A DNA stretch of 64,000 nt. Source: a virus. Taxonomy: Duplodnaviria; Heunggongvirae; Uroviricota; Caudoviricetes. The position numbers were made by a program, and so were the translations under genes. Below the pieces are notes generated by a model, which worked only from the letters and a program-made list of their open reading frames with translations, searched no databases and was not told where the DNA came from. Position 1 is the first letter of the stretch; each line of letters opens with the position of its first letter. Of the stretch, positions 1,861 to 54,197 are shown piece by piece. The stretch lies in IMG/VR virus record IMGVR_UViG_3300025682_000004; one strand, 5' to 3'.

Positions 1861-1944
1861 AGTTCTTATATCAAATAAGTAATTGTATAATATTTTTTGT
1901 ATTAATTTTGCTAACTCCCCATTTATATAAAGAACGTTTTTTTG

Positions 1945-2030
1945 TAGCGGTGATGGGAATCGAACCCATTTAAACCCAATAGGGACTCCGTGCTTATGAG
2001 GCAGGCGAGATACCATTTCTCCACACCGCA
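1945..2030 (-). tRNA. tRNA gene, class II-like (long variable arm), apparent anticodon CAU
   Basis: Folded by hand: 6-bp acceptor gcggtg/caccgc with a 1:72 mismatch, D arm gaga-aatggta-tctc, anticodon arm cctgc-ctcataa-gcacg, about 19-nt variable region, T arm atggg-ttcgatt-cccat. The combination of CAU with a long extra arm is unusual, so the assignment is uncertain. Confidence 0.45.
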
Positions 2031-2063
2031 ATTTCAAAAAACAGAAAATTTGTTTGTTATTTT

Positions 2064-2136
2064 TTTACAATGTTGGAATCGAACCAACAATATTTCATAT
2101 TGTGAATGAACACTCTATCCATTGAGTTAATTGTAC
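2064..2136 (-). tRNA. tRNA gene, 73 nt with canonical numbering; loop gives anticodon ACA with C at position 33
   Basis: Hand fold gives acceptor tacaat/attgta, U8, D arm actc-aatggata-gagt, anticodon arm ttcat-tcacaat-atgaa, 5-nt variable loop, T arm gttgg-ttcgatt-ccaac. The odd anticodon loop suggests a non-standard tRNA or pseudogene. Confidence 0.5.
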
Positions 2137-13250: not shown

Positions 13251-13892
13251 TCATTTTGATAATATTGTAACTATATATCTTTTTAATTTGGTAAAATCAG
13301 GAAGTAGTTTTTTATATTTATTATAAATTTCACCATCAACATCATAATAACCATACTTATAACATCTATTAGAAATAGAAGTATTTAATAATTCAACATC
13401 AAATTGAAAAAACTTATAAATATTTAAATTAATACCCCATATTTTATTATCAAATAATACATAAATTATTTCATCTTTATACTGATAAAACAAATCTATT
13501 GTTTTTGGTAATACATCCATTAAATCTTCAACATTTCTTAAATGGAAAAAAACAGGGTCTAAATCAACATACATATATTTTGGTGAAAAATAAAATTCTG
13601 GTAATAAATTTATAAATTTCTCAATACCTTTAATGTGTGATGATTTATTCTCATTAAAAGAAAATTCCCAATACAGTTCATTGGTTATTATTTTCTTTTT
13701 TAGAATATCGGCATTTTGTATAATTTCATTATCTTGATTTGTTGATTTCATAAAATTCCATCCAACGTATAATGTTGGTAAAGATTTATCAATAATTGAA
13801 TATTCAATTGGTTCTTTTATGTAGTTAACATAATCAACCATAATATGATTTACCAATTCATCTTCATAAATAATATTACCAATCTTTACCAT
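13251..13892 (-). CDS. hypothetical protein
   Basis: 213-aa ORF whose start overlaps the stop of the epimerase gene (operon-like). Confidence 0.35.
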   Translation of the reverse strand: MVKIGNIIYEDELVNHIMVDYVNYIKEPIEYSIIDKSLPTLYVGWNFMKSTNQDNEIIQNADILKKKIITNELYWEFSFNENKSSHIKGIEKFINLLPEFYFSPKYMYVDLDPVFFHLRNVEDLMDVLPKTIDLFYQYKDEIIYVLFDNKIWGINLNIYKFFQFDVELLNTSISNRCYKYGYYDVDGEIYNKYKKLLPDFTKLKRYIVTILSK

Positions 13893-14800
13893 TTTTTTAA
13901 ATAATTTAAATATTTTAAATATTCACTAATTCCATATTCTAAACTCTTAAATTTAATAGAATAACCAATTTCTTTTAATTTATCAATTTTTGCTTCTGTA
14001 AAATTTTGATATTTATCTGATATACTATCTGGAATATCAATATACTTAATATTAGGTGGTATTCCTAAATTGTGAAAAATAATATTAGCAATATCATTAA
14101 ACGACCTTGCAATTCCTGTTCCAACATTATAAATACCTGATTTTGGTAATCTATTTATTAAAAATATTATAACATTTACAACATCATCAATATGAATAAA
14201 ATCTCTTTTCTGTTCACCATCCAAAATATTAAATGTGTTTGATTTAAATAATTTTACATACCCATTATCAATAATTTGATTATATATTTGATATATCATT
14301 GAAGACATTCTAAGTTTATATTCTTCAAATTTACCATACACATTAAAAAACTTCAAACCATACCAATTCTTAGGTGATTTATGTTCTAATTGTGACCATA
14401 AATCAAAATTATGTTTTGACCAACCATATAAATTCAATGGTTTTAATTTCCAAATATCCGATTTATCATCAAAACCATAACTACCATCACCATACGTTGC
14501 AGCAGAACTAGCATAAATTAATGTTATATCATATTTAGAACATAGTTTCCAAATAAACATAGACATACCTAAATTATATTCATAAAAAAGTTCACTATTT
14601 TCTAATGTAGTATCTGTAATTGCACCCAAATGAATAATAGTTTTAATACTACTAGCATTATTTGTTAACCAAATATAAATATCATTTAAACTTTCTCTTT
14701 TAGTATCAAGAATTTTAATTGGTAATTTATTATTCGTTATAGAAAATTCAAACACTAAATTTCTACCAATAAAACCATCACCACCAGTAATTACAATCAT
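13886..14800 (-). CDS. hldD: ADP-L-glycero-D-manno-heptose 6-epimerase-like (HldD/RfaD family, SDR)
   Basis: N-terminal Rossmann MIVITGGDGFIGRNL. YASSAATYG, NVYG and NVGTG blocks align with E. coli RfaD (YASSAATYG, NVYGPRE, NLGTG) in the same order. Confidence 0.75.
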   Translation of the reverse strand: MIVITGGDGFIGRNLVFEFSITNNKLPIKILDTKRESLNDIYIWLTNNASSIKTIIHLGAITDTTLENSELFYEYNLGMSMFIWKLCSKYDITLIYASSAATYGDGSYGFDDKSDIWKLKPLNLYGWSKHNFDLWSQLEHKSPKNWYGLKFFNVYGKFEEYKLRMSSMIYQIYNQIIDNGYVKLFKSNTFNILDGEQKRDFIHIDDVVNVIIFLINRLPKSGIYNVGTGIARSFNDIANIIFHNLGIPPNIKYIDIPDSISDKYQNFTEAKIDKLKEIGYSIKFKSLEYGISEYLKYLNYLKKW

Positions 14801-15222
14801 AATTTCTTTATTTTATTAATAATATCGGTTGTTGATTTTCCGTTTGTTTTTGGATAATAAACAACACCATATTTTGAATACTCAGAACCAATAACTGTTT
14901 TATTTTTATATTCATCACCAACAACCATACAATCAATTTTTAAGTTCTTTATATAATTTTTTAATTCATCATCCGTATTAAATATAGCAACAACATCAAC
15001 CATATTTAAACTTGACATTATTTTAACTCTTGTTTCTAAATCATTTATTGGACGATTATCCCCTTTTAATTCTTTTATACGTTCATCACTATCTAAACCA
15101 ACAAATAGTTTATTTAATTTATTTTGTTTCTTTTTAGTAACACCATATCTTTTTGCAAACCACAATAAATCAATATGACCACTATGAAGAATATCAAAAC
15201 AACCATTTACCCAAACTCTCAT
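14797..15222 (-). CDS. hldC: D-beta-D-heptose 1-phosphate adenylyltransferase-like (HldE domain II / HldC; cytidylyltransferase fold)
   Basis: VWVNGCFDILHSGHIDLL matches the (H/T)xGH nucleotidyltransferase signature of the RfaE C-domain (GCFDLLHAGH). The 141-aa size fits a stand-alone HldC. Confidence 0.7.
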   Translation of the reverse strand: MRVWVNGCFDILHSGHIDLLWFAKRYGVTKKKQNKLNKLFVGLDSDERIKELKGDNRPINDLETRVKIMSSLNMVDVVAIFNTDDELKNYIKNLKIDCMVVGDEYKNKTVIGSEYSKYGVVYYPKTNGKSTTDIINKIKKL

Positions 15223-15509
15223 AATTCATCAATTTTTATTGCCTTATCATCTATTAATAAATCAAAGGCTGGTTTATTATTCATTATTAATTCATTATAT
15301 TTACAACCCCAATCAGATAGTTGTTTTTTTGTTAAATTAGTCCAATCTAAACCACTTTTCATACCCCTTCCTGTCCAATATATTATTATATTACCATCAT
15401 CATATAGTTTATTTACCTTTTTGATGTTTTCAAAATTTGGTATTGAATTAACATAATCATTTCCATTCGTATAACATATTGTATTATCAATATCTACATA
15501 AATTATCAT
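15219..15509 (-). CDS. minimal HAD-superfamily phosphatase (GmhB-like role proposed)
   Basis: DIDNT (HAD motif I, DxDxT), WTGRG (motif II Thr) and a K...DD motif III/IV. Only 96 aa. Its position between kinase and adenylyltransferase fits the pathway step. Confidence 0.5.
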   Translation of the reverse strand: MIIYVDIDNTICYTNGNDYVNSIPNFENIKKVNKLYDDGNIIIYWTGRGMKSGLDWTNLTKKQLSDWGCKYNELIMNNKPAFDLLIDDKAIKIDEL

Positions 15510-15889
15510 GATTGACTATCACCCTTTCTTATTCTATAACTATCAAAATCAAAATGTTGTGTTGATATTTCAATAATTTCACTATCTTCCAATGCTATTA
15601 TTTGATGTGGGTCACCCTGTTCAATATGAATAACATCACCAATATTAAGTTCTCTTGAATATTCAGTAGCATCATTAGTATCAATATAATTTAATATTAA
15701 TTTTCCTTTATTTACATAAAAGGTTTCTTCTTTTTTTAAATGGTAATGCATACTAAATTTAGAACCAGATTTAAATTGAAGTATTTTACCACAATAATTT
15801 TCATCATTATGTAGTATTATTTCACGACCCCATTTTTTCTCAACAATAGATTCAAAATCCAAATCATTTATGTTTAAAATTTTTATCAT
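15506..15889 (-). CDS. cupin-fold protein (candidate sugar-phosphate isomerase replacing SIS-type GmhA)
   Basis: Cupin motifs G(x)5HxH(x)3E: SMHYHLKKEETFYV ... GDVIHIEQGDPHQ. No SIS-domain gene is in the operon. The function is inferred from context only. Confidence 0.45.
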   Translation of the reverse strand: MIKILNINDLDFESIVEKKWGREIILHNDENYCGKILQFKSGSKFSMHYHLKKEETFYVNKGKLILNYIDTNDATEYSRELNIGDVIHIEQGDPHQIIALEDSEIIEISTQHFDFDSYRIRKGDSQS

Positions 15890-16641
15890 ATATTACTTTT
15901 ATTTATAACACCAACACCTTTTTGGGAAACAACCCAAGAAGCACATTTATTTGCAAAATTAATTGCTTTTGGAATATTTCCAAATTCTAAATAATTTGCC
16001 ACAAAACCTGCAAAAAAAGTATCACCAGCACCCGCTAAATTAATAATAGCATATTGTTGTTCAACATGATATAAAACATCATTATGTCTAGCACCTTCAT
16101 CCCCCAAGGTAATAATTAATTCACCCTTAAAATCATCAATTAAATACTTTGAATTATTATTAAACTCATTTTCATTAACTTTTATGAATTCTATACCATC
16201 TGCCCATTTTCCAAACTTTTTTTTGCTATCTAAAAAAACTAATTTGTGTTTATTTGTTATATTTGTTATAGTATTTTCAGTAAGAAAACCTTTATCATAA
16301 TCTGAAATTACAATAGCATCATAATCATTAAAATTAATATTAACTAAATATTCTTCTGCTTTTTCAACAATCCTATCATAACCATCAACCCTAAGTAACA
16401 TTTGATTTGTTTTTTTATCAACAAATCTTAATTTATGTGGTTTTACCATAGTATTTGTAATTATATCACACGAAATACCTAAACCTTCTAAATTATTTTT
16501 AACATTACTTGCCATACCACTAGATTGAACACCATACAAACTCTTAAAAATAGGCACTGGTGCTTCAGGACTAATTCTTTCACAAACACCATATTGAAAT
16601 TCATCAATACAACTATCACCAATAACTAATACTTTATCCAT
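15886..16641 (-). CDS. hldA: D-beta-D-heptose 7-phosphate kinase-like (HldE domain I / HldA; PfkB family)
   Basis: N-terminus KVLVIGDSCIDEFQYGVCERISPEAPVPIF closely parallels RfaE domain I (VLVVGDVMLDRYWYG...RISPEAPVPVV). C-terminal PfkB motif LAGAGDTFFAGF. Confidence 0.75.
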   Translation of the reverse strand: MDKVLVIGDSCIDEFQYGVCERISPEAPVPIFKSLYGVQSSGMASNVKNNLEGLGISCDIITNTMVKPHKLRFVDKKTNQMLLRVDGYDRIVEKAEEYLVNINFNDYDAIVISDYDKGFLTENTITNITNKHKLVFLDSKKKFGKWADGIEFIKVNENEFNNNSKYLIDDFKGELIITLGDEGARHNDVLYHVEQQYAIINLAGAGDTFFAGFVANYLEFGNIPKAINFANKCASWVVSQKGVGVINKSNI

Positions 16642-16671
16642 AATATTATTTTTTTACATAATAAATATAGT

Positions 16672-16911
16672 TTAACAAACCCAAATATATGTTGGTGTTG
16701 CATTAAATCTTCTTGTGGGTGTTTTATATCCCAAAGGTTTTAAAAAATCATCAATTTCTTTAAATTCTTCACTTGTTGCTGCTTCACAAATAATAACAGG
16801 TAATTTGTTTTTTATTAAATTTATACCACCATCAAGTATTTTTCTTTCAGCACCTTCAGTATCTATTTTAATCAACACAACATTTTCATTTAATGAAATT
16901 TCATCATCCAA
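16672..16911 (-). pseudogene. FkbM-family methyltransferase, C-terminal fragment (gene split by IS insertion)
   Basis: LIKIDTEGAERKIL matches the FkbM LKIDVEGAE block. There is no native start codon; the ORF caller used TTG. The upstream in-frame sequence runs straight into the IS end. Confidence 0.55.
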
Positions 16912-16929
16912 TGTATTTGAAATTGTGAA

Positions 16930-18120
16930 CTACCCATTTGCTAAAGACAAATGGGCTTCGGACTTCGCAGATAGTTGAGTATTACTACTTCTTACACCAT
17001 CTCCATCCGTGTTATCGAGCGTCCCACCCGATATTATTTTCAATCCTTCTTTCAGAATGACCTTTGCTGCATTTAAATCACGGTCTAATTTATGTCCATT
17101 TTTGCAAGTCCATTCACGAACCGAAAGATTTAAATCTTGATTTATCCATCCACACACATTACAAGTTTTGCTTGAGGGGTAAAAGCGATTGATTTTAACA
17201 ACTTGTTTATCGTTCCAATCTGCTTTGTACTCCAAGAATCTCACAAATGTACCCCAACTTGCATCTGCAATGTGTTTTGATAATTTTCTATTGCTCATCA
17301 TTCCCTTTACATTAAGGTCTTCCAAAGCAATTATGTCATAATCAGAAACAAGTTGATGCGATACCTTATGCAATACATCTTGTCTTGTGTTGGATATTTT
17401 CTCGTGTATTTTGGCAACTTTTCGTTTTTGTCTTTCAAACGAATTGCTACCTTTTTGCTTACGAGAAAGATGTTTTTGTGCTTTCGCTAAATCTCTTTCA
17501 TATTTCTTGGTATATCTGTTATTCTTGAATTTGATGCCGTCAGAAGTAATGGCAAAATCTTTCAAACCTAAATCCACACCACATACAGCACCAGTTTTTT
17601 CTTTTGGTTGATATTGTTCTTCGGTTAAAATTGAAACATAGTATCTTCCAGTCGGTGTTTTAGTAAAGGTCATTTTGCCAACATCGCCCCTTATTTCACG
17701 GTGAACAATACATTTAATCCCTTCTTTGAATTTAGGTACGTGAATTTTACTACCTTCTAATTTTGTGTGTTGTGGTACGGTGAAACTATTCCTTCTTTTC
17801 TTAGACTTAAATCTTGGAAACTTGGCATTGCCACGAAAGAAGTTAAGGAATGCAGTATCCAAAGACCTTAAAGCAAATTGCAGGGTTTGGCTGTTTACTT
17901 CTTTAAGCCAAGCAGTTTCCTCTTGCTTTTTTAATTCAGTCAAAGTTTTTGCTTGAACATAATAGTTGTCAGACTTCTTGTTTGCCTGATACTGTTCTTT
18001 ACGCTCATTCAGAAAGTAATTGTACACGAACCTAACACACCCGAAGTGTTTATCCAGCAACACTTTTTGGTCTTGTGTCGGTCTTAATTCAAAGCGATAT
18101 GTCCTATATATTGTTTTCAC
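16930..18120 (-). CDS. tnpB: TnpB (OrfB; RuvC-like, RNA-guided nuclease family)
   Basis: RuvC-I GVDLGLKDFA, RuvC-II IALEDLNVKGM, Zn finger CNVCG...CKNGH, RuvC-III DRDLNAAKVI. The C-terminus overlaps the right-end hairpin, where omega-RNA is normally derived. Confidence 0.85.
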   Translation of the reverse strand: MKTIYRTYRFELRPTQDQKVLLDKHFGCVRFVYNYFLNERKEQYQANKKSDNYYVQAKTLTELKKQEETAWLKEVNSQTLQFALRSLDTAFLNFFRGNAKFPRFKSKKRRNSFTVPQHTKLEGSKIHVPKFKEGIKCIVHREIRGDVGKMTFTKTPTGRYYVSILTEEQYQPKEKTGAVCGVDLGLKDFAITSDGIKFKNNRYTKKYERDLAKAQKHLSRKQKGSNSFERQKRKVAKIHEKISNTRQDVLHKVSHQLVSDYDIIALEDLNVKGMMSNRKLSKHIADASWGTFVRFLEYKADWNDKQVVKINRFYPSSKTCNVCGWINQDLNLSVREWTCKNGHKLDRDLNAAKVILKEGLKIISGGTLDNTDGDGVRSSNTQLSAKSEAHLSLANG

Positions 18121-18210
18121 GTTTACAAATATACTATATTTATACTAAATACGCAAGTTTTGTAAAAGTTCCGTCTTTGGGTAAAAACTTTCACAAAAAC
18201 TTGCTTCGTT

Positions 18211-18624
18211 ATGTCTAAAAAATCACAGTACATTTCTACAAATCGTTCAAAGCATTATCTCAAGTGCCATCTTATTTTTGTCTGCAAGTACCGTAAAAAG
18301 TTGCTTGTTGGTCAGTTAAAAGATGATATGCGTTCTATTCTTTTAAACATTACTTCTAATTCAGATTTTGAAATTGAAGTCTTTGAATCTGATTTAGACC
18401 ACATTCACTTTCTTATTCGCTACATTCCTAGTTTATCCATTACTTCAATAGTTCGTAAGTTAAAACAAGAATCTGCCTATCACATTTGGCGTTCATCTCA
18501 CAGGTCATTCTTATTTAAACATTTTTGGAAAGAACACACTTTTTGGTCAGATGGTTATTTCGTTTGCTCAATTGGTGAGGCTTCTCCTGATACCATTCGT
18601 GAGTATATTCTCAATCAGGGCTAG
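18211..18624 (+). CDS. tnpA: TnpA, IS200/IS605 Y1 (HUH) transposase
   Basis: HUH motif HIHFLI, C-terminal Tyr in TIREYIL. The 137-aa size is typical. Confidence 0.85.
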   Translation: MSKKSQYISTNRSKHYLKCHLIFVCKYRKKLLVGQLKDDMRSILLNITSNSDFEIEVFESDLDHIHFLIRYIPSLSITSIVRKLKQESAYHIWRSSHRSFLFKHFWKEHTFWSDGYFVCSIGEASPDTIREYILNQG

Positions 18625-18642: not shown

Positions 18643-19104
18643 CTAAAGATTTGTGGGTTTTACGCTCCGTTTTATAAATAATAAATTGTCATTGTTTTTA
18701 TTTTTTTCAATTACTTTCGATATTCCAGTATTTTGATATGTTTCATATTTAATTAAATTTAATTCATCTTTTTTGTTCCATAAAGCAATATTTCTTAAAA
18801 CATATTGTTTTTTTGAATTTTTTGATAAATTCTCATTTAAAATGTTAAAACAAAAATTTTCTGGTTCAAATATATATAATTTTGTTGAATTACAATGATT
18901 GGCAAAAAATAATGAATGATTTCCTATATTACCACCAACATCAACATAAACACCATTTAAATTTAAATTACTAATATATTCTAATAATTCTTGTTCATAC
19001 CAAGGTATTTGTTTAAAAATATGTTCATTTTCAACTCCTTTAAATGAATATTGAAAATTATCATATTTAAAATTTTTTATAACAACATTATTTTTCATAT
19101 TCAT
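18643..19104 (-). pseudogene. FkbM-family methyltransferase, N-terminal fragment (gene split by IS insertion)
   Basis: YVDVGGNIGNHSLFFA is the FkbM SAM-binding block (DVGANIG). The last about 8 codons (RSVKPTNL-stop) are read from the IS end hairpin. Confidence 0.55.
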
Positions 19105-19258: not shown

Positions 19259-19993
19259 TCATTTTATCATTTTTTTTTTTATTGGAAATATTGTAAATTT
19301 TAATTTTTCTAATGTTTTTCTATTTGTAAAAAAACCACAATCAGTAAAAAATGATATATAAATATCATCTGAAATTTTATATGATTTTTTTCCTGTCCAC
19401 GATTCTAACCTACCATCATTAATAATATTAAAAACATAATAATACTCTGACAATAATGATGCGTATTTAAATATTCTACTAAAATTAATATTTAAAAAAT
19501 CATTTGGAATGAAACAATACACATCATAATTCGATTTTTCACACATTTTAAACATCTCATCAAATGTTTTCCAATATTGATGTTTACCTCTATGCTCACT
19601 ATTCACAATAAAACGATTATCATCCAAAACATAATCTGACCTATCATCAAATATATAATAATCAATATTATTATATTCTTTTATTTCATTTAATATCATA
19701 GTCAACATGTCAATTCTCATATAATTTGAGATTAACACCAATGTTTTTAATTCTGTATTATGTTTTTTGTTATTAAAAATATAAGCATAATCATATGTAT
19801 TACTAATATTGTTAACATCAACATCATTGACTATTAAATTATCATTAATGTTTTTTTGGTTAATATATATTTTATTGTCATTAATATTATTTTCAATAAA
19901 AATATTATTAGAATTAATAATATTAATCCTTTTTTTTATTATTCTCTTAATATTGTTTTTATTTTTTCTCATTATTATCACAATTATAATCAA
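19259..19993 (-). CDS. hypothetical protein, possibly a nucleotide-sugar transferase
   Basis: 244-aa ORF with an I/N-rich N-terminus and DD-containing segments. No secure motif. Confidence 0.3.
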   Translation of the reverse strand: MIIIVIIMRKNKNNIKRIIKKRINIINSNNIFIENNINDNKIYINQKNINDNLIVNDVDVNNISNTYDYAYIFNNKKHNTELKTLVLISNYMRIDMLTMILNEIKEYNNIDYYIFDDRSDYVLDDNRFIVNSEHRGKHQYWKTFDEMFKMCEKSNYDVYCFIPNDFLNINFSRIFKYASLLSEYYYVFNIINDGRLESWTGKKSYKISDDIYISFFTDCGFFTNRKTLEKLKFTIFPIKKKMIK

Positions 19994-20579
19994 TCTCGGT
20001 GTAGTTAATCTTACTTTTATTATTAAAATAATTTGGAAATTTTAATTTTTGTAAATTAAAATTTAATTCTGGAAACACATCAATATGCGACACAATTACA
20101 TTTAAACACTTTTTTAATTGATAACCACGTTTAAGCATTTCTTGATTTATCATAAAATCCCAATAAACAGATTCATCACAAACCCAATAATTAATATCAT
20201 CAATTACTTTTCTTCTCTGTATATTAACACAAGTTACCGTATTAACATCACCAAAAAAAACACCATTATATTCTTGAATATTTATTGGTTGAATTATATT
20301 ACCAACACCCGTTCTTTTTAACATTAATTGACCAATATTTCGAAAGGCATCCATTATATTCACAATTTTATCCAAAAAATTTTCTGTTATTGGTGGACGA
20401 TCATTATCCCATTGCATAGTATAAACACAATCATCATCCAAATTTTCATAACCCAATTTAGTCCCACCAAAATCACCTGAATTATAATCTAAAAAAATTG
20501 GCTTTATTTTATAATATCCATCAACTACAATAGATTTTAACCATTGTGTTGTACCATCAGTACTATTATTATCAATCAC
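19959..20579 (-). CDS. glycosyltransferase-like protein (GT-A fold fragment/short form)
   Basis: N-terminal IDNNSTDGT resembles the GT2 DDGSTD block. Its start overlaps the stop of the upstream gene by ATGA. Confidence 0.35.
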   Translation of the reverse strand: MIDNNSTDGTTQWLKSIVVDGYYKIKPIFLDYNSGDFGGTKLGYENLDDDCVYTMQWDNDRPPITENFLDKIVNIMDAFRNIGQLMLKRTGVGNIIQPINIQEYNGVFFGDVNTVTCVNIQRRKVIDDINYWVCDESVYWDFMINQEMLKRGYQLKKCLNVIVSHIDVFPELNFNLQKLKFPNYFNNKSKINYTEIDYNCDNNEKK

Positions 20580-21295
20580 ACCTTTAAAAATACGTTATTA
20601 ATAAAATTAGTTTGCACACTATCATCGTTTTTGTGTTTATCAAAAACATAATTATCTTCAGGATATTGTTTTTTGTGTTTTAAATACCCTTCAACATGTG
20701 ACAAAACATACCGTTTTATCCCATTTTTTTTCGCAAAATAATTAACATATAAATCATCCATTGATACATTACCACAGTAATCATACCATTTATCTAAATC
20801 ATTATAAAAATTACGTTTAAATAAACTACCACAATTACTAACAATATCGACTTCTTGATCCAATAAAACAGTACCTAACGCCCTATAAACAATTCTATCT
20901 CTATAATAACTATTAATAATACCTTTCAATAATACAACACCATGTAATGAAACATGTGCATTATATTTCTCACAACCATTAATTAATTTACCTAAATAAT
21001 CGTGTGGATATATTAAATCATCATCAGCCAACGCAATATAATAATTATTACCATGAGCAATATATTTTAATTTTTCATTACTACCCTTTTCATTATTACC
21101 CCTATATAATTTAATTCGCATATCATCGCCCAATTCTTTATTAATATATTCCCATTGCTCATCAGTCCAATTATTACACGTAATTGTTGCTGTACCAAAT
21201 TCTGGTTGACTTCTTAGCGAATTAATTGCAACAACGGCATGACCTTGTCGCCATAATGATGCAATGTAAATATCTACTTTACTATTCATAATCAT
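20576..21295 (-). CDS. putative glycosyltransferase
   Basis: ALADDD (DxD-like) and a position between other GT genes. Weak evidence. Confidence 0.35.
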   Translation of the reverse strand: MIMNSKVDIYIASLWRQGHAVVAINSLRSQPEFGTATITCNNWTDEQWEYINKELGDDMRIKLYRGNNEKGSNEKLKYIAHGNNYYIALADDDLIYPHDYLGKLINGCEKYNAHVSLHGVVLLKGIINSYYRDRIVYRALGTVLLDQEVDIVSNCGSLFKRNFYNDLDKWYDYCGNVSMDDLYVNYFAKKNGIKRYVLSHVEGYLKHKKQYPEDNYVFDKHKNDDSVQTNFINNVFLKV

Positions 21296-23396
21296 TTGGT
21301 TTTTTTCCTAAATTTGGAACACCTTGTGTTTTTGTTAACACTTGGTTAATCCATTTCTGTTTTAATTTTTTATTTTCTAATTGTTTAATAGCCCTATAAT
21401 CACCAAAATTCCAAGACACCCAATCAATTGGTAAATATTTCGAATGAAACATAAAACCAATACCAGATATATTCCCTGCAATAATTTTTCCAAAACCATT
21501 ATCATCTGGAACTATTCTTCCATTAATGTTTACTCTCCAAAGCAATAATTCATCTTCATTTTCAATATGATTCACTATTATACTTAAAGAATTTTCATTA
21601 ATAAACATATCATCATCATCTAAATACATAATCCAACCTTCTTTTACATAGTTATGTAAAACATTTATGTGTAAATTCCAAGGTGCAGGATATGATGCCA
21701 AATTATCTGGTTTTGGTTGAACTTCTTGTAATTCTAATTTAATATAATCATCACAATAATCACAATCAATATCACTACCAACAATATGATTAATATTTTT
21801 ATATGTTTGATTTAAAATTGAATCTCTACATATTTTAAAATGTTTAGGTCTATCGTGTGTTCTTGTTATAATATTAATAATTGGATTTTTATTTTCTTTA
21901 TTTCTTTTAATTTCTCTTTCTTTATTTTCAAAATCGTTTACAAAATTCATCAATCTATTATAATCAACCATAAATCTTTCATTACCACCCAAAATTTTAT
22001 TTCTACTTATAGATTCATAATGAATTGCAACAGCATCACTAACTGTAATATTTTTTAATCCATCGTATTTACATTTAATATTTAATTCAACATCTTCCAA
22101 ACATTCAATATAGTTTTCATTAAACCCACCATATTTTAAAAATAAATCTTTTTTAATTAACATAAACCCACCAGTATTTCCCAATGAATCGTAATTAATA
22201 CCAGTAAAATAATTTTCAGTTTTTCTAATATCTTTATGTGTAAGTCTTAAAATATTATTTTCTTTATACATTAAAATCCCATTATGTTGAATACTACCAT
22301 CCCCATAATGTAATCTAATACCAATAGTACCAACAGTATCTTTATTTTGATTATAAATTTCAATACATCTACTAAGACTATCATTTAATAATTTTATATC
22401 ATCATTACAAAATAGTATTAATTCTGTATCATTAGATGTATGATTTTTTACTACATCATTATTTATTTTAGCAAAATTATAATAATTATATTTTATTAAT
22501 TTAATTTTATTTGAAAGAAATGAATCATATTCCTTAATTACACTTTCATCACTACCCGTATCAGCAATAATTATTTCATAATTATCATAATTAACAACAT
22601 TATTCCAAGAATAAATATTATTTTTAATATACTTTAAATTATTTTTTGTTGGAATAATTACTGTTACTTTTGGCTCTGTTAATAAATTAACAATTAAATC
22701 ATTATATTCTGGTAATATTGTTATTGGTAATTCATCATAATATTTTTCCGCTAATTGTTTTCTATTTTCATCCCATTGTTGATTTGTTTCACCAATTGAT
22801 TTATGTAATATTCTAATATCTGTTGTTACACCAATATTACAACCATCAAGCCAATTTGGAATACAAAATGATAAATCATAAAGATGAAACCCTTTAAATT
22901 CTTCATCAAATCTATGTACAATCGTATCGGGATTAAAAGAAATAAAAAGACCATCAACCAAAACAACTGGTGTAATCACACCCTTTTTTTCTTTAGAATA
23001 TTCACTTGTCCAAATAGAATATCCATCCGTATGGTCAACAATACCAACCATTTTTGTTCTATCTTCCCACCATACACAGGATTCAGGTAAATAGGTACTA
23101 CCTGCAACACCAATAATATCAAAATTTGTTTGATTAAATTTAAAAAGCAATAATTTACCCCAATCTCTCGTACCTATAATAATATCATTATGACAAACAA
23201 CAAATATAGAATCCTTTTTATAATGTTCTTTAATCGCTTTATTATAAATTTCAGTAAGACTATACTGATTAAAATTTGAATAGCAAATTACATCATGTTT
23301 AACTTTACCAATGGTATTGTTAATATGTTTAATAAATTTCTGATTTTCTTCTTCAGATAAATGGGATGAAAAAACAACAACAATATTATTTTTCAT
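21282..23396 (-). CDS. multidomain glycosyltransferase (at least two GT2-like modules)
   Basis: Central module KVTVIIPTKNNLKYIKNNI...YEIIIADTGSDESV is a classic GT2 N-terminal pattern. The N-terminal and C-terminal regions each have additional GT-A-like DxD segments (FHLYDLSF, MYLDDDDMF). Confidence 0.6.
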   Translation of the reverse strand: MKNNIVVVFSSHLSEEENQKFIKHINNTIGKVKHDVICYSNFNQYSLTEIYNKAIKEHYKKDSIFVVCHNDIIIGTRDWGKLLLFKFNQTNFDIIGVAGSTYLPESCVWWEDRTKMVGIVDHTDGYSIWTSEYSKEKKGVITPVVLVDGLFISFNPDTIVHRFDEEFKGFHLYDLSFCIPNWLDGCNIGVTTDIRILHKSIGETNQQWDENRKQLAEKYYDELPITILPEYNDLIVNLLTEPKVTVIIPTKNNLKYIKNNIYSWNNVVNYDNYEIIIADTGSDESVIKEYDSFLSNKIKLIKYNYYNFAKINNDVVKNHTSNDTELILFCNDDIKLLNDSLSRCIEIYNQNKDTVGTIGIRLHYGDGSIQHNGILMYKENNILRLTHKDIRKTENYFTGINYDSLGNTGGFMLIKKDLFLKYGGFNENYIECLEDVELNIKCKYDGLKNITVSDAVAIHYESISRNKILGGNERFMVDYNRLMNFVNDFENKEREIKRNKENKNPIINIITRTHDRPKHFKICRDSILNQTYKNINHIVGSDIDCDYCDDYIKLELQEVQPKPDNLASYPAPWNLHINVLHNYVKEGWIMYLDDDDMFINENSLSIIVNHIENEDELLLWRVNINGRIVPDDNGFGKIIAGNISGIGFMFHSKYLPIDWVSWNFGDYRAIKQLENKKLKQKWINQVLTKTQGVPNLGKKPNDYE

Positions 23397-32431: not shown

Positions 32432-33596
32432 AAATATTGAAAAATCAATTGAAGATGTTGAAAAAGAAAAATTTGAAAAAATTAAAATTTCTTTAAATAA
32501 TTTAGAAAATAAAAAATCTAAATTTATTTTTTGTATACCCGAATCACAATCACCAGTAGCAAGTATATATGAGTTATATTTTCATGCCACTGTTGTAAAA
32601 AGAATGGGATATGATGTAATTATATTCACAGAAAAAAATGATTATGTAAAACCTAATTGGATTGAGAGTGAATTAACCGATATTAAACATTTATCAATGG
32701 ATGAAAATAATAAATTAAGTGTCGGTCCTGAAGATATTATGATAATTCCTGAAGTTTATTCAAATATCATGGAACATACTAAAAATTTACCTTGTTTAAG
32801 AATAGGATTTTTACAATCTATTGATTATATGTTAAATAGTTTAATACCAGGTATAAATTGGGAAATGTTTGGTATTAATAATATTATTACTACTTCAAAA
32901 ACACTTGAGGAATTTATTGAATTATATTTTGGAAAAAAATATAAAACTAAATCATATACAATAGGAATTCCTGATTATTTTGAAAAAACAGAAAGACCAA
33001 AAAAACCAGTAGTATCAATTATTGGTAGAAATCCAAATGAAATTAGTAAATTAGTTAAATTGTTTTTTCTTAAATACCCTGAATTTAATTGGATTACTTT
33101 TGACCCAATGTTAACTAAAAGTAAACCACCACAACAAATGCGTAGGGTTGATTTTGCAAAAAGATTGAGTGAAAATTTTGCTGCTGTTTGGATTGATAGA
33201 ATCTCAAGTTTTGGTACATTTCCTCTTGAATGTATGAAATCAGGCGTTGTTCCTATTTGTTTAAAACCAGATATTATTCCTGAATATATGGTTGAAAGAA
33301 GTGAAGATGGTGATAAACCAATAAAAGCAATTGATAATTGTGGCGTTTGGACTAATAATTATTATGATTTACCAATTTTAATTGCAGATACATTAGTCAA
33401 ATTTTTAGATGATAATATATCTAAAGAAATTTATGATAATATGGATAAGATTGCATCAAAATACAATCAAGATAATTCTGAAAAAGAATTGGTTGAGATT
33501 TATAGTGGATATGTAAACGAAAGAATTAATTTATTTAAATCCGCATTAGAATCTAATAAAAATAACAATAATGAAAATACTAAAGAAAATGAATAG
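32418..33596 (+). CDS. hypothetical protein (glycan-related by context)
   Basis: 392-aa ORF upstream of, and overlapping, a GT2-like gene. Confidence 0.3.
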   Translation: MKMDKNIEKSIEDVEKEKFEKIKISLNNLENKKSKFIFCIPESQSPVASIYELYFHATVVKRMGYDVIIFTEKNDYVKPNWIESELTDIKHLSMDENNKLSVGPEDIMIIPEVYSNIMEHTKNLPCLRIGFLQSIDYMLNSLIPGINWEMFGINNIITTSKTLEEFIELYFGKKYKTKSYTIGIPDYFEKTERPKKPVVSIIGRNPNEISKLVKLFFLKYPEFNWITFDPMLTKSKPPQQMRRVDFAKRLSENFAAVWIDRISSFGTFPLECMKSGVVPICLKPDIIPEYMVERSEDGDKPIKAIDNCGVWTNNYYDLPILIADTLVKFLDDNISKEIYDNMDKIASKYNQDNSEKELVEIYSGYVNERINLFKSALESNKNNNNENTKENE

Positions 33597-34392
33597 TACA
33601 TCAATAATAATTCCAATACATGAATTTAATGATAATATTTCAACATATTTAAATAAAGCGATTGAATCAATTATAAATCAACAAGAAGTTGAAAAACCAG
33701 ACGTTTTAATTGTTTATTCATCAACAATAGAAAATGAAATTAATAATTTTATTAAAGAAAAATATTTTAATTATAATTTTAAACTAATAAAAAATAATGG
33801 AAATACTGATTATCAATCTCAGGTAAATCTTGCTGTTGATAGTGTTAATACTGATTATTTTACTGTTCTTGAATTTGATGACGAATTGGGGTTAACGTAT
33901 TTAAAAAATATTAATGAATATGTAAAAGCATATCCCAACATTGATATTTTTTTAATAATGATGATTGAAGTAACAAATGAAAATAAAGGTATTAAATTAA
34001 CTAATGAAATGGTTTGGTCACAACAATTTGTTGGTGAAAATGGTGAATTGGGATATTTGAATTTAAATTCAATAAAACAATATACTGATTTTAAATTAAG
34101 TGGTGCTGCAATAAAAAAATCTGAATTTATTAATTTGGGTAGATATAAAAGAAACATAAAACTAACTTTTATGTATGAATTTATTCTTAGAGCATTAAAT
34201 AATGCATCTAAAATATTTGCAATACCAAAAATCGGATATAGACATTTAATTAATCGTGAAGGTAGTTTATTTGATGGATATTTAAAAAATATGCCAATGG
34301 ATGAACGAAAATTTTGGTTTGAAACTGCGTTTAAAGAGTCTAATTTCACTACAGATAGAGAAATTGATATAAGTAAACTTCAAGAAAAATAA
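33571..34392 (+). CDS. glycosyltransferase family 2-like
   Basis: SIIIPIHEFNDNISTYLNKAIESIINQ resembles the GT2 N-terminus (IIIPxyN...L.SL..Q), with a downstream EFDDE acidic motif. Confidence 0.45.
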   Translation: MKILKKMNSTSIIIPIHEFNDNISTYLNKAIESIINQQEVEKPDVLIVYSSTIENEINNFIKEKYFNYNFKLIKNNGNTDYQSQVNLAVDSVNTDYFTVLEFDDELGLTYLKNINEYVKAYPNIDIFLIMMIEVTNENKGIKLTNEMVWSQQFVGENGELGYLNLNSIKQYTDFKLSGAAIKKSEFINLGRYKRNIKLTFMYEFILRALNNASKIFAIPKIGYRHLINREGSLFDGYLKNMPMDERKFWFETAFKESNFTTDREIDISKLQEK

Positions 34393-44545: not shown

Positions 44546-46003
44546 ATGGAAGCACACCAACATAAAATTAGAATAAAAAAATCAAAAGAAGAAATATTAG
44601 ATTTTAATTATAAAAACATTTCTTTAGATAATACAGAAATTAAATTAATTGATAAAAACACTGCAAGTAAAATTATAATAGAATATGAATGGTTAAAAAC
44701 AATGCCATATATTGTTAAATATTGTTTTGGTATATATTTTAATACAGAAAATGGTCAAAAACTAGGTGGTGTTTTAGTTTTTAGTAATGATTATACAGAA
44801 AATACTGGTGTTTGGGATAAATATGGATTTACAAATAAAATTTTATTATTAAGCAGGGGTGTTTGTTTATGGTGGACACCAAAAAATACAGCATCTTTTT
44901 TTATTTCTAGGGTTTGTAAATGGTTAAAAAATAATACAAAATATAGAATAATAACAGCAACTGTTGACCCAGCAGCAGGTGAAATCGGAACAATTTATCA
45001 ATCATTAAATTGGTTATATGTTGGTGTTATGTCTGGTAATTATTCCAATAATAAAGAAACAAAAAGATTTTCAGTATTAATTGATGGTAAATTAAGATAT
45101 AGTAGATGGGTTAGAAATAAATTGGGTACGATGAAAAAAAATGTTATTTTAAAACACTATCCCAATGCAATATTTTTACCACAATATAGAAAACATAGAT
45201 ATTTTTATTTTATAGACACACCAAGAAATAATAAAAAACATAAAACATCTATAAATCATTTAATATTACCATATCCTAAAAGAAATGATGAAATTATTGG
45301 CGTTATTTATAAAATAAAAAACAAAATAAACAACAAATTATATATTGGACAAACAATTCGTTCAATAAATGAAAAAATATTAGAATATAAAAATGGTTTG
45401 GGTAATGATTATATTAATAATGCATTCAATAAGTATGGTTGGGATAATTTTGAATTTACAATAATTGATACGGCAAAAACAATTCAAGAACTAAACAATA
45501 AAGAAATTAAATATATTAGTGATTATAAATCAAACCAAAAAGAATTTGGTTATAATATTGAAGGTGGTGGTAAAAATATAATACCAACAAAAGAAACTTT
45601 AGATAAAATGTCTATTTCTCATTTAGGTATTAAACAATCTAAAGAATGGATTAATAAAAGAATTTCAAAAGCAGGTAGTAATGATGCAAAAAAATACGGT
45701 AGAAAAAAAACAAAGCAAGATAAATTAATTTTAAGTAAAAATTCTTCTAAATATTGGTTAGGTAAAAACCATACAGAAGAAACTAAACAAAAAATTAGTA
45801 AAACAAAAAAACAAATTGGATTGTCTGAAAAACAAAAAGAAATAATTTGCAAAAAGGTATTTAAAGTTAATTTAAAAACTAATGAAATTATTGAATTTGA
45901 ATCAACAAAAAAGGCGAGTGTTTTTGAAAATGTTAATCAATCCACAATATCAAGATGGTGTAAAAATGAAAAAAGAGTAAATGGTTATTTATGGAAAAAT
46001 TAA
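44546..46003 (+). CDS. GIY-YIG homing-endonuclease-like protein with unusual N-terminal extra domain and C-terminal NUMOD-type DNA-binding repeats
   Basis: GIY-YIG core at about residues 250-330: GVIYKIKNKINNKLYIGQT...R...E...N. C-terminal repeats SISHLGIKQSKEWINK and WLGKNHTEETKQKISK resemble NUMOD3. The first about 240 aa form an unrecognised domain. Confidence 0.55.
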   Translation: MEAHQHKIRIKKSKEEILDFNYKNISLDNTEIKLIDKNTASKIIIEYEWLKTMPYIVKYCFGIYFNTENGQKLGGVLVFSNDYTENTGVWDKYGFTNKILLLSRGVCLWWTPKNTASFFISRVCKWLKNNTKYRIITATVDPAAGEIGTIYQSLNWLYVGVMSGNYSNNKETKRFSVLIDGKLRYSRWVRNKLGTMKKNVILKHYPNAIFLPQYRKHRYFYFIDTPRNNKKHKTSINHLILPYPKRNDEIIGVIYKIKNKINNKLYIGQTIRSINEKILEYKNGLGNDYINNAFNKYGWDNFEFTIIDTAKTIQELNNKEIKYISDYKSNQKEFGYNIEGGGKNIIPTKETLDKMSISHLGIKQSKEWINKRISKAGSNDAKKYGRKKTKQDKLILSKNSSKYWLGKNHTEETKQKISKTKKQIGLSEKQKEIICKKVFKVNLKTNEIIEFESTKKASVFENVNQSTISRWCKNEKRVNGYLWKN

Positions 46004-46578: not shown

Positions 46579-49500
46579 TTAAGAGATATCTGTCCAATTT
46601 CTATCAAAGATTAATTCATTTTTTGCTCTTGTATATGCAACATATTCTAAATTTTTTTCTTGTAAAAATTCCCAATTTTTTGTTGTTTTCATTGGTAATA
46701 AATCTGGTCTTATTATAAAGACCCTATTTGCTTCAAGACCCTTTATTTTATGTATTGTACTTAAGCAAATTCCTTGAATTTCATCACTAAAAATTAAACC
46801 AATTTTATTTTTTAAATCAACAATACTATTTGATAATTTTGCTAAAAAAAGTAATGTTGTTACTTTATCTTCTAATGTAACATAACCACTATGTTCATTT
46901 GGGTTTAAAATACCTTCCTTTTTTAATTCTTTTCTATATTTAATTAATTCTCTATCCCAAAAAAGAATTAAATTGTCAATAGATTTAATATCACCAATTA
47001 ATTCAATTAACTGAACACCAATATCAGAACCTTTCACAATTGCTTTTTTTTCTTGTTCTAAAAATTCAAAAAATAATTTAATTAATGGTATTGTTGTTCT
47101 ACATAAAACAAAATCACCACTTTCTGCTTCTTTTAAAACATTACCATCCCTTACAATACCATCAGGTGCATTGGGTAGTGCTTTTATATCAGGTACAATT
47201 TCTTGTGCTTTTTTTATTACATTTTTTGAACATCTGAATGACGTTGATAATGGTAGTGTTTTAGTATTTGGGAATTTACTAAACCATTCAAACGCTTTTT
47301 CATCTGCTGCATTAAATCCATATATACAATTATGTGTTAATATATTATCAGCAACATATGTTTCGTATTTATCAATTTCTAAAGAATAAACTAAACCAGA
47401 ATATTTTTCATATTTTAATTCATATATTTTTTGAATGTTGTGCAAATTTGCATTTAAACTGCAAATTTGCATTAAATCTGGAATAATATTAATTGCATAT
47501 ATTTCTAAAAAATTTTGATTATAATCCATATTCCAATTAGAATTCCATATCGGGTAGTTTGAATTTTTATTAAAATCATTAAATATTTTATCTTTATTTG
47601 CTAAATAATAATTAGCATCTTTATATGCATAATACAAAGAATAGTACGATTTTAAAATCCAAATTTTATTAACATCACTTTTATTCTTAAAAATTTTAAA
47701 AAAATCAATCTCATTTCTTATTGTGAATATACGTATGTGTTGAGTTTCATCCATCAATTCAAACAAACACAATACAAATTGTAATTGTTTTGTTTTTTTT
47801 ATTTTAACCAAACATTTATGTTCTGGTGTATATTTAGATTCACATCCTCTTGAAATTATTTTTATTAAATTTCCATTATAATACCTACAACCAATATTGT
47901 TAATTTTACTTTTAATAAAGGAATTACTTTTTCTATCGTAAGAAATAATTAAATCACCAACATTTAAATTTTCAATATCCTTTTCTGTATTATCATTCAT
48001 TAATATTTTTGTTCCTTTAGGTTGACATTGATAATAATCACCAACAGATATTAATCTACCTATATATTTACCAGTAGTTTTATCTTTTTTTATTAATTTT
48101 TCTACAATTTTTATTTGACAACGATTTAAATCTTGAACTTCATCAATAAAAATATAATCTTGAGGAAACATCCAAATACTACTATCTATTGCTGGTAAAT
48201 ATATCATATCAATAAAATCATAATTTTTTCTATCAATTGTTGATTCTTCTAATATTTTTAATATTCTTTTAATATCTTTATTTTCTTTAATTGGTATATT
48301 ATATTTTTCAGCAATATTTGGAATAAATTCTGAATTTGTTGTTAATGTTAATCTACATAAATTAACCATTTTTTTTATATTATTTAAATATAAAGAAATA
48401 TCATCGTTATCATCAAATTCATCGTTTAATTTCCAATTTTTTGATTTTGATTGTATTATTTTATCAATTTTAAATTCATCGAATTGTATTTTATCACCAT
48501 ATTTTCTTTTAATTGCAGACGTACCTAAACCATAAGTTGTATAACATCTAACATATTCGGGTAATTTTGTTTTTAATTCTTCTTGTATGTGTTTATTGAA
48601 CGCTAAAAACATAATAGATTTATCTTTAGGTAATAATTTTACTGCATCAACTATGGTTGAAGTATTGTGTGTGATTGTAAAATCACCCAATAAAAATCTA
48701 CCATTACCATTTAAAGTAAATCCAAAATATAAACCTTGTGATATAATATTTTCTTTTATTTTAAAAGAAAATAAATTATTGTAATTTGTTTTTTGTTTTC
48801 TTTTATATACTAAAGGTAATATGCTAGTATTTCCATTAATGTCAATTTTCCAAAAAATGTTATTTCGAAAAGAAAATATCTTTTTCTCTTTATATATAAA
48901 ACCTAAACTTTCACATAAAAATTTCAAATTAACTATTTTCCTTTTTGAAATTATTGTTAGTTTGGATGTCCTGTTTTTTTTATTATAATAAACATCAAAA
49001 ATACCCGCCAAGATTTTTTTTCTATTTTCAATAGAATTTATTAGATATTTGTCTGGTATTGATAAATGAATATTCTTTTTGTTTTTATCAATATTAAAAA
49101 TAATACACTTTTGAAAATCATCGGAATAAAAACCCTTTTCATATTTTTTATTTAAACAAACACTTGTTTTATTTAAAACAAAAAAAGAATTATCTTTTAA
49201 CTCCAACAATTTTTCTATTATTTTTCTTGTTAACCTAAAATCGACAAATAAAAATTGTTTTATATTATTTTTTAAATTATATCCTAACCATAATCCTAAT
49301 AAATATGGATTTATTTCTGTTTTATTTTCTTGAAATTCAACAATGGATTTTTTTAATTTAATATTTTTTAAATAACCATTCCATTTTTTTGAATATTTGA
49401 GTTCATTTAGTGGTGTATCTAACAAAATTTTAGAAATTTCATTGTAATGTGTAATTACATGAACATCATTACAAACCCAAGAATATCCTATTTCATTTTT

Positions 49501-49749
49501 TATTTTATATAGTTTACCATATCCAATATTTTTATTCAATACTTTACGAGGCGATGAATCATCACCCATTAAAAAATCACCAATTTTTATATCTTGAACC
49601 CTTTTTATTGTTCCATCATACATCAATACTGGTGTATCATATCCAAGACATTTACCTGTACCAGCATATGCTTTTATTAAAATATTTTCAGGTCTTTTTT
49701 TTGTAAATAAAAATATTCTTTCTTGTTCTTTTGTTGGTTTATTAATCAT
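46579..49749 (-). CDS. SF1 DNA helicase (Dda/UvrD-like) precursor containing two inteins
   Basis: Exteins join to give Walker A AYAGTGK|TSTIV and motif III VGDYYQ|CIYGFNAA (compare UvrD VGDDDQSIYGWRGA). The C-terminus has LSTIHKIKGLEAN and YVAYTRAKN (motifs V/VI). The predicted mature size is about 494 aa. Confidence 0.7.
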   Translation of the reverse strand: MINKPTKEQERIFLFTKKRPENILIKAYAGTGKCLGYDTPVLMYDGTIKRVQDIKIGDFLMGDDSSPRKVLNKNIGYGKLYKIKNEIGYSWVCNDVHVITHYNEISKILLDTPLNELKYSKKWNGYLKNIKLKKSIVEFQENKTEINPYLLGLWLGYNLKNNIKQFLFVDFRLTRKIIEKLLELKDNSFFVLNKTSVCLNKKYEKGFYSDDFQKCIIFNIDKNKKNIHLSIPDKYLINSIENRKKILAGIFDVYYNKKNRTSKLTIISKRKIVNLKFLCESLGFIYKEKKIFSFRNNIFWKIDINGNTSILPLVYKRKQKTNYNNLFSFKIKENIISQGLYFGFTLNGNGRFLLGDFTITHNTSTIVDAVKLLPKDKSIMFLAFNKHIQEELKTKLPEYVRCYTTYGLGTSAIKRKYGDKIQFDEFKIDKIIQSKSKNWKLNDEFDDNDDISLYLNNIKKMVNLCRLTLTTNSEFIPNIAEKYNIPIKENKDIKRILKILEESTIDRKNYDFIDMIYLPAIDSSIWMFPQDYIFIDEVQDLNRCQIKIVEKLIKKDKTTGKYIGRLISVGDYYQCQPKGTKILMNDNTEKDIENLNVGDLIISYDRKSNSFIKSKINNIGCRYYNGNLIKIISRGCESKYTPEHKCLVKIKKTKQLQFVLCLFELMDETQHIRIFTIRNEIDFFKIFKNKSDVNKIWILKSYYSLYYAYKDANYYLANKDKIFNDFNKNSNYPIWNSNWNMDYNQNFLEIYAINIIPDLMQICSLNANLHNIQKIYELKYEKYSGLVYSLEIDKYETYVADNILTHNCIYGFNAADEKAFEWFSKFPNTKTLPLSTSFRCSKNVIKKAQEIVPDIKALPNAPDGIVRDGNVLKEAESGDFVLCRTTIPLIKLFFEFLEQEKKAIVKGSDIGVQLIELIGDIKSIDNLILFWDRELIKYRKELKKEGILNPNEHSGYVTLEDKVTTLLFLAKLSNSIVDLKNKIGLIFSDEIQGICLSTIHKIKGLEANRVFIIRPDLLPMKTTKNWEFLQEKNLEYVAYTRAKNELIFDRNWTDIS
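47329..48027 (-). mobile_element. intein 2 (233 aa) inserted in helicase motif III
   Basis: Starts with Cys after VGDYYQ and ends ...ILTHN followed by Cys. Contains a Cys/His cluster (CRYY...GCESKYTPEHKC). Its endonuclease type is unclear. Confidence 0.55.
48664..49650 (-). mobile_element. intein 1 (329 aa) with LAGLIDADG-type homing endonuclease motifs, inserted in Walker A
   Basis: Starts with Cys after GTGK and ends ...ITHN followed by Thr. Internal blocks LLGLWLGYNL and ILAGIFDVYY resemble the two LAGLIDADG motifs. Confidence 0.65.
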
Positions 49750-54171: not shown

Positions 54172-54197
54172 GCTTTTATTTTTTTTGTTTTATGTTT

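Follow-up and report, generated by a model that had tools for sequence, protein, structure and literature searches.

ADP-L-glycero-beta-D-manno-heptose (ADP-heptose) is the donor for the inner core of lipopolysaccharide (LPS) and also a potent innate-immune signal in animals. Its canonical pathway, that of Gram-negative bacteria, starts from sedoheptulose-7-phosphate, an intermediate of the pentose phosphate pathway, and uses the SIS-type isomerase GmhA, a kinase and an adenylyltransferase (HldE, or HldA plus HldC), the HAD-IIIA phosphatase GmhB and the epimerase HldD. Here we describe a virus-borne counterpart: an operon of five genes at positions 13886-16641 of a 64,000-nucleotide stretch of tailed-phage DNA (IMG/VR record IMGVR_UViG_3300025682_000004; the whole stretch is called the window below). 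The operon appears to share the substrate, intermediates and product of the canonical pathway, and its kinase, adenylyltransferase and epimerase are homologous to the canonical ones, with kinase and transferase split in the HldA/HldC style; in place of GmhA, however, it has a 127-residue cupin, and in place of GmhB a capless HAD phosphatase of 96 residues, of the AfhF/1xpj type. We propose that the cupin is probably a sedoheptulose-7-phosphate isomerase and a non-orthologous replacement of GmhA, an activity that we infer from its family, predicted fold and genomic context.

The same gene set is found in the 'heptose/LPS' cassettes of cyanomyoviruses (T4-like gene clusters 304-308; for example P-SSM2 PSSM2_309-313, S-CAM1, S-SM2 and S-T4). 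These share all five protein families with the operon, including the mini-HAD and the cupin (46-51% identity), and have glycosyltransferases or carbamoyltransferases adjacent, whereas the phage described here is of a different lineage, with a much lower G+C content (24%) and another gene order. In the genome announcement of one such phage, genes for 'heptose-related lipopolysaccharide synthesis' are named (PMC7378029). Phage-encoded heptose activation is therefore already known from cyanophages, and because the cassette is already in their genomes only the role of the cupin is new; the labels that the HAD and the cupin carry there mean that its proposed isomerase role has gone unrecognised, and the searchable literature yielded no description of a cupin-type heptose isomerase. 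The operon is thus a further member of a viral heptose cassette already present, mis-annotated, in cyanophages.

Phages also encode a pathway to UDP-D-arabinofuranose for DNA arabinosylation (RB69 gp51-55; HY126 AfhE/AfhF), which has a SIS arabinose-5-phosphate isomerase, an APH/choline-kinase-like kinase and a MurU-like transferase; it starts from ribulose-5-phosphate, proceeds without HldD, and its product goes onto 5-hydroxycytosine in DNA (PMC13326640). We considered this pathway as the identity of the operon and decided against it, since its kinase and transferase belong to other families and the operon has HldD. The GDP-D-glycero-alpha-D-manno-heptose pathway uses GmhA, HddA, GmhB and HddC, unlike the window operon, whose PfkB kinase, HldC-like transferase and HldD make it one of the ADP/beta type.

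The cupin itself can be compared with D-lyxose/D-mannose isomerases (7nzo, 3kmh), the type II phosphomannose isomerase domain and the archaeal cupin phosphoglucose/phosphomannose isomerases, which share with it a single barrel, a His/His/Glu/His metal site and a lysine three residues past the second histidine. Identity to these enzymes is at most 25%, and the window protein is short next to the D-lyxose isomerases, which have about 180-230 residues. The reaction proposed for it would be the seven-carbon counterpart of the conversion of fructose-6-phosphate to mannose-6-phosphate.

The operon consists of five consecutive minus-strand open reading frames (ORFs), all four junctions being ATGA stop/start overlaps (Table 1). 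The SDR (short-chain dehydrogenase/reductase) epimerase exceeds the TIGR02197 equivalog cut-off, with 313.4 against 274.6 bits. No other enzyme of the operon passes a curated cut-off of this kind, and the kinase and transferase are assigned by their best hits. Among NCBIfam models, rfaE_dom_I fits the kinase best (121.7 bits, cut-off 345), with fructoselysine kinase (43.5) and ribokinase (35.6) next; the kinase has about 60 residues fewer than HldE domain I. The top model for the nucleotidyltransferase is rfaE_dom_II (109.2 bits, cut-off 181.5), and glycerol-3-phosphate cytidylyltransferase (TagD) scores 60.1. An earlier reading of the same DNA, made from its letters alone (the sequence-only reading), had named five overlapping genes with a split kinase and transferase, an RfaE domain I-like PfkB kinase, a cytidylyltransferase-fold adenylyltransferase, a minimal 96-residue HAD phosphatase and an HldD-like epimerase. 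The layout stands at every junction and the epimerase passes its cut-off; the kinase and transferase have the HldE domains as their best matches, ahead of ribokinase and TagD, respectively, though below cut-off, and the phosphatase has all four HAD catalytic motifs.

These motifs (D6xD8xT10, T46, K79 and D87D88) lie on a capless HAD core; D8, T46 and K79 are invariant, and the remaining motif residues are kept in at least 90% of 32 homologues. A Pfam scan of the mini-HAD gave no match, and its match to TIGR01689 ('capsule biosynthesis phosphatase') is weak. The closest solved structure is that of phage AfhF, a sugar-1,5-bisphosphate phosphatase, and the protein is not of the HAD-IIIA (histidinol-phosphatase-like) GmhB type; it is presumably a distant, capless replacement of GmhB.

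Table 1 Features of the window, with the giant-virus contigs that carry a related gene pair (aa, amino acids; GT2, glycosyltransferase family 2)
Feature	Position or locus	Strand	Details
tRNA-Met (CAT) and tRNA-Cys (ACA)	1944-2136	-	two phage tRNA genes
ORF without family, translationally coupled to HldD	13251-13892	-	213 aa; overlaps HldD stop by 7 nt
HldD, ADP-glyceromanno-heptose 6-epimerase (SDR)	13886-14800	-	304 aa; TIGR02197
HldC-like nucleotidyltransferase, putative heptose-1-phosphate adenylyltransferase	14797-15222	-	141 aa; CTP_transf_like 3e-15; phrog_7878
Capless minimal HAD phosphatase, putative heptose-1,7-bisphosphate 7-phosphatase, GmhB analogue	15219-15509	-	96 aa; phrog_1238
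Metal-binding cupin, proposed sedoheptulose-7-phosphate isomerase	15506-15889	-	127 aa; phrog_7851
HldA-like PfkB kinase	15886-16641	-	251 aa; Pfam PfkB 2e-17; phrog_8133
FkbM-type methyltransferase, C-terminal fragment	16672-16911	-	Methyltransf_21 2.5e-10, profile positions 103-172 of 173
IS200/IS605 element	16930-18624		TnpB 16930-18120 minus; Y1 transposase TnpA 18211-18624 plus
Same FkbM methyltransferase, N-terminal fragment	18643-19104	-	aligns to residues 1-142 of intact L158 protein
Three GT2-family glycosyltransferase genes	19959-23396	-	Glycos_transf_2, Glyco_tranf_2_5; upstream of operon, same orientation
GT2-family gene	33571-34392		GT2 match
Giant-virus contigs with HldE-like enzyme and HAD-cupin	L001, L004-L006, L014-L018, L020, L037, L043, L049, L051, L078

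We focused on the cupin, which stands in the place of GmhA. It scores above the Pfam cut-offs for Cupin_1 and Cupin_2, as the sequence-only reading would have it, and the structure prediction and fold comparison which that reading proposed as a check point to an isomerase: an AlphaFold (AF2) model is all-beta, with a pLDDT (predicted local distance difference test) of 95.7, and its best fold match is a D-lyxose/mannose isomerase. In 62 cupin homologues (the window protein and 61 relatives), H48, H50, K53, E55 and H95 are invariant and form an HxHxxKxE...H metal site; the basic residues K18, K35 and R119 are likewise invariant, and the family has invariant motifs of its own, KxWGxE and a C-terminal DSYR. 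The specific Pfam families matched most frequently by the 62 members are Lyx_isomer (43 of 62) and MannoseP_isomer (39 of 62).

Sequence-level searches of the PDB, with the single sequence or with a 62-member profile, returned only generic metal-cupins such as oxalate decarboxylase, quercetinase and dioxygenases, and so do not discriminate function. A Foldseek search against BFVD gave no close viral model, and the source names of members of the cupin cluster are generic. Ten cupin proteins have unexplained N- or C-terminal extensions, in which a Pfam scan revealed no further partner domains.

The sequence-only reading had noted that a SIS-type GmhA was missing, and in the 64-kb window none was found, either among the ORFs (queried with E. 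coli GmhA, C. jejuni GmhA and a phage SIS protein) or in a six-frame translation (queried with the two bacterial proteins). The same SIS queries recovered 29 of 29 viral GmhA control loci, indicating that the search was sensitive enough.

Across viral cassettes, the cupin and GmhA are distributed in complementary fashion. We counted genes at 80 IMG/VR cupin loci out of at least 580: a PfkB kinase is present in 63, a transferase in 61, the mini-HAD in 48, an HldD hit in 31 and a SIS gene in none. Conversely, the 29 viral GmhA loci have a kinase (11/29), a transferase (10/29) or a canonical GmhB (6/29), and never the cupin; GmhA lies inside the cassette there, for example in the order kinase-GmhA-transferase-GmhB at L131. 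More than 20 gene orders occur among the cupin cassettes, yet the gene set stays together, with a median gap of 2 nt between cupin and kinase and of 0 nt between cupin and HAD.

Gene fusions tie the cupin to the same partners in other viruses. On the giant-virus contigs of Table 1, HAD-cupin fusions of 221-223 residues adjoin an HldE-like gene, which scores 320 bits with the model for HldE; the RNA polymerase subunit Rpb2, topoisomerase II and DVNP encoded at L001 and L004-L006 identify the HAD-cupin contigs as giant viruses. No SIS gene lies within 10 kb of these loci. Between them, the HldE-like enzyme and the HAD-cupin would take these viruses of eukaryotes through the four steps that lead to ADP-D,D-heptose. 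Cupin-transferase and transferase-cupin fusions both exist as well.

In bacteria, a Levyibacteriota genome of the candidate phyla radiation (CPR) encodes in a row an HldA-cupin fusion, an HldC-GmhB fusion, HldD (401 bits) and a GT9 heptosyltransferase: an otherwise canonical cassette, with the cupin where GmhA is expected. Besides the window, L115 has an HldD above the equivalog cut-off (401 bits), and a GT9 heptosyltransferase is found with the cassette there and in L007-L010. Prokaryotic examples are few; at least 580 confirmed IMG/VR loci of the cupin family compare with 30 loci in 185,579 prokaryotic species (one genome each). Several of those 30 come from short contigs in metagenome-assembled genomes and could be viral DNA that was binned wrongly. 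The great majority of the family is viral. When 1.84 billion representative proteins were searched with a profile, 2,626 hits had E <= 1e-10, of which 177 reached E <= 1e-30. A shorter relative of 114 residues, with a C-terminal DDDSIYI replacing DSYR, occurs in Poseidonibacter isolates (L110, L113), where it adjoins a 158-residue cytidylyltransferase-like gene and a GT4-like gene, with no kinase.

The Synechococcus phage SynMITS9220M01 (L154 2310-12002) carries two parallel sugar-activation cassettes. One holds an HddA-type GHMP heptose-7-phosphate kinase (3e-85), the cupin, an HddC-like transferase, an RmlD-like reductase and a GMD-like dehydratase, and looks like a GDP-6-deoxyheptose route; the other holds a GHMP kinase, a SIS protein, a fusion of mini-HAD and transferase, and an epimerase. 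Each cassette holds exactly one candidate isomerase. Since its cupin is flanked by the HddA-type kinase and the HddC-like transferase, this phage shows that the cupin goes with either of two non-homologous kinase/transferase pairs, which have nothing but the heptose-phosphate steps in common.

Relatives of the cupin with 46-51% identity occur in 35 phage records, all of marine cyanophages or uncultured marine viruses. A SIS-like sequence occurs in only one of the 35, that of SynMITS9220M01, and several of the records are complete (for example P-SSM2, S-SM2 and S-T4). In P-SSM2 the cupin, labelled 'putative nucleotidyltransferase' there and 'cysteine dioxygenase' in RefSeq, has as neighbours a nucleotidyltransferase, a PfkB kinase, a 'phosphoheptose isomerase' gene and an HldD-like epimerase. 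We considered the 'phosphoheptose isomerase' beside the cupin in P-SSM2, Sf-CH8, S-SM2, S-CAM1 and S-T4 as a possible GmhA and rejected it; the translations are mini-HAD proteins with a DxDGT motif, not SIS proteins. PHROGs likewise labels phrog_1238, the HAD, 'phosphoheptose isomerase' and phrog_7851, the cupin, 'cysteine dioxygenase'. Judged from the translations, this is an annotation error propagated through the cyanophage records (L152 5697-6378, which is P-SSM2; L153; L155-L157) and through PHROGs 1238 and 7851.

The operon would thus amount to a self-contained viral route from sedoheptulose-7-phosphate to ADP-L-glycero-beta-D-manno-heptose. In the step that we propose for it, the cupin would bind a divalent metal through H48, H50, E55 and H95 and convert the ketose to D-glycero-D-manno-heptose-7-phosphate through an enediol, as in D-lyxose/mannose and phosphomannose isomerases; K53 would assist catalysis, while K18, K35 and the C-terminal DSYR motif would hold the phosphate. 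The PfkB kinase would then phosphorylate C1, the minimal HAD would take off the 7-phosphate, as AfhF does the 5-phosphate of arabinose-1,5-bisphosphate, the HldC-like enzyme would add AMP, and HldD would invert C6. The last four steps follow from family matches, and the first is a proposal. Neighbouring GT2 glycosyltransferases presumably use the heptose product on an acceptor.

We wondered whether the cupin might instead act on a nucleotide-activated sugar, as a C3/C5 epimerase or ketoisomerase on ADP- or GDP-heptose (compare RmlC, Campylobacter DdahB/MlghB and the CapF cupin domain), with GmhA coming from the host. This is the main rival, and it would accommodate three observations: 39 of the 62 cupin members match Polysacc_synt_C, the Pfam family that spans the region in which the Cap5F chain aligns; the SynMITS9220M01 cupin clusters with a GMD-like 4,6-dehydratase and an RmlD-like reductase; and bacterial hosts that make LPS heptose could supply GmhA. 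C3/C5 epimerases of the RmlC kind, however, need a 4-keto intermediate, supplied by dehydratases of the GMD-like 4,6 type, and such a dehydratase is found in just 2 of the 80 viral cupin loci and not in the window. Although the sequence-only reading had named RmlC-type epimerases as a possible alternative, neither the window cupin nor its 61 relatives match an RmlC-type or FdtA family; an invariant His3-Glu metal site with a lysine, as seen here, is characteristic of aldose-ketose isomerases and not known from epimerases of the RmlC type. Moreover, the enzymes to which the cupin is fused (HAD phosphatase, kinase) act at the phosphosugar stage, and the giant-virus sets are minimal, with HldE and HAD-cupin and no nearby SIS gene; the eukaryotic hosts of giant viruses are not known to make GmhA. 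We therefore disfavour a nucleotide-heptose epimerase and regard it as unlikely.

A role unrelated to sugar activation, as a dioxygenase or a regulatory ligand-binding protein whose linkage to the cassette is hitch-hiking, seems to us a good deal too improbable to adopt, even with the 'cysteine dioxygenase' label of PHROGs and RefSeq, the oxalate decarboxylases and dioxygenases among the sequence-level PDB matches, and the cupins that stand alone in phage contigs lacking heptose genes. Despite extensive reshuffling of gene order, the linkage persists in phages, giant viruses and CPR bacteria, which between them show domain fusions of three kinds; no cysteine dioxygenase family is matched by any of the 62 members, and Glu55 is invariant in them, a glutamate that cysteine dioxygenases are not known to have. 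Least probable of all, and very much so, is a phosphomannose-type isomerase (fructose-6-phosphate to mannose-6-phosphate) or another phosphosugar isomerase in a cassette that activates a hexose or pentose. Some relatives are annotated 'mannose-6-phosphate isomerase-like', GMP_PMI as well as MannoseP_isomer is matched among them, the solved structure closest to the mini-HAD is that of an enzyme for arabinose-1,5-bisphosphate, from a pathway built on the same logic, and the kinase and transferase fall below the heptose equivalog cut-offs. Yet C6 epimerisation is meaningful only for a heptose, and the HldD equivalog is passed both here and in L115; the HldE domains are the best matches of the kinase and transferase, GT9 heptosyltransferases go with the cassette at the five loci named above, and the phage arabinose pathway has different kinase and transferase families and a SIS isomerase.

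Several observations weigh against the proposal that the cupin is the missing sedoheptulose-7-phosphate isomerase. The window cupin's own Lyx_isomer and MannoseP_isomer scores are weak, below the Pfam gathering thresholds, and since the kinase and transferase lie below their equivalog cut-offs the sugar and nucleotide specificity of the operon is a matter of best matches. The rest of the phage genome of about 220 kb (some 156 kb beyond the window) or the host could supply GmhA, and in SynMITS9220M01 the cupin and a SIS protein occur in one phage, though in separate cassettes. A kinase was not seen in 17 of the 80 viral cupin loci, and four of these carry no heptose genes, three of them (L077, L080, L092) within about 10 kb of flank on both sides and one (L068) within 10 kb on one side. 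Such stand-alone cupins suggest that the family may have a wider or different role; they are unexplained by the isomerase model unless such phages feed a host pathway.

As to their surroundings, the cupin of L080 directly follows a 370-residue thymidylate-synthase homologue, and at L068 and L092 its neighbours are an FAD-oxidoreductase-like gene on one side and a P-loop ATPase gene on the other.

Taken together, the complementary distribution, the fusions, the presence in both ADP- and GDP-type cassettes and the fold match lend strong support to the suggestion of the sequence-only reading that the cupin, as a probable isomerase, replaces GmhA. We lean, by a small measure, towards a broader view: the cupin may found a hitherto unrecognised, overwhelmingly virus-borne family of metal-dependent sedoheptulose-7-phosphate isomerases which, with an AfhF-like mini-HAD, would let phages and giant viruses of protists make ADP- and GDP-heptoses independently of the host; this might allow heptosylation in cells that perhaps make no heptose, such as marine picocyanobacteria and eukaryotic plankton, and the 'phosphoheptose isomerase' of marine viromes would be a phosphatase.

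If the cupin is the isomerase, it would be a clean non-orthologous displacement at the committed step of a pathway thought to be well understood, and all four ADP-heptose synthesis steps would be carried by giant viruses of eukaryotes. The propagated labels would then need correction, both that of the phosphatase as 'phosphoheptose isomerase' (PHROG 1238, RefSeq) and that of the cupin as 'cysteine dioxygenase' (PHROG 7851); one virome study counts phosphoheptose isomerase (gmhA) among its marker metabolic genes. A 127-residue enzyme would also become available for chemo-enzymatic heptose synthesis.

The window belongs to a large tailed, T4-like phage. Its major head protein is of the gp23 type, with the best relatives in Microcystis phage Mel-JY01 and in uncultured phages of 0.5 Mb, and genes for a tail tube protein, a UvsX-like recombinase and a DnaB-like helicase are present as well; G+C content is about 24% across the window, with a range of 21-33% in 2-kb steps. 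The DNA of the five-gene operon is 100% identical to a copy on a 220,431-bp metagenomic contig (locus L158), and its HldD protein is on record in 95 blocks of a public sequence collection, so that the operon is no assembly artefact; the phage is real and widespread. A megablast search of 50,697 phage records, with the operon and its surroundings (22 kb) as query, gave no match, so the lineage has no close sequenced relative among those records.

Directly after HldD, the translationally coupled 213-residue ORF had no match in Pfam, PHROG or the PDB; it is kept in the same place in the relatives L011, L013, L019, L048 and L062. Promoter and terminator scans yielded nothing better than shuffled sequence.

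Directly upstream of the kinase, an IS200/IS605 element (domain matches OrfB_IS605, Cas12f1-like_TNB, HTH_OrfB_IS605 and Y1_Tnp) splits the FkbM methyltransferase gene, and is absent from the otherwise identical L158 locus; the joined fragments are 95% identical to an intact 225-residue gene there. The 2-kb interval 16001-18000, which holds most of the element, has 31% G+C against 22-26% in neighbouring intervals. The glycosyltransferases that the sequence-only reading had placed beside the operon are the GT2-family genes of Table 1, and the three nearer ones are candidate users of the heptose. The glycan cluster also varies between strains: at window positions 19259-20579 a 206-residue GT2-like ORF and a 244-residue ORF stand where L158 (5970-7440) has a class I methyltransferase and a 301-residue ORF, with flanking genes apparently the same.

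Further along the window, a 485-residue ORF (44546-46003) directly after the major head protein gene has a GIY-YIG-like motif (…IGVIYKIKNKINNKLYIGQT…) in its C-terminal half and is possibly a homing endonuclease. In a 1056-residue ORF (46579-49749) a P-loop (…AGTGK) is followed directly by CLGYDTPVLMYDGT…, an arrangement that resembles an intein within an ATPase/helicase gene. A thymidylate synthase homologue at 53101-54767 is unusually long (356 residues), keeps the uracil-type Asn in its PYNLAS motif, and is adjoined by a dUTPase-like ORF.

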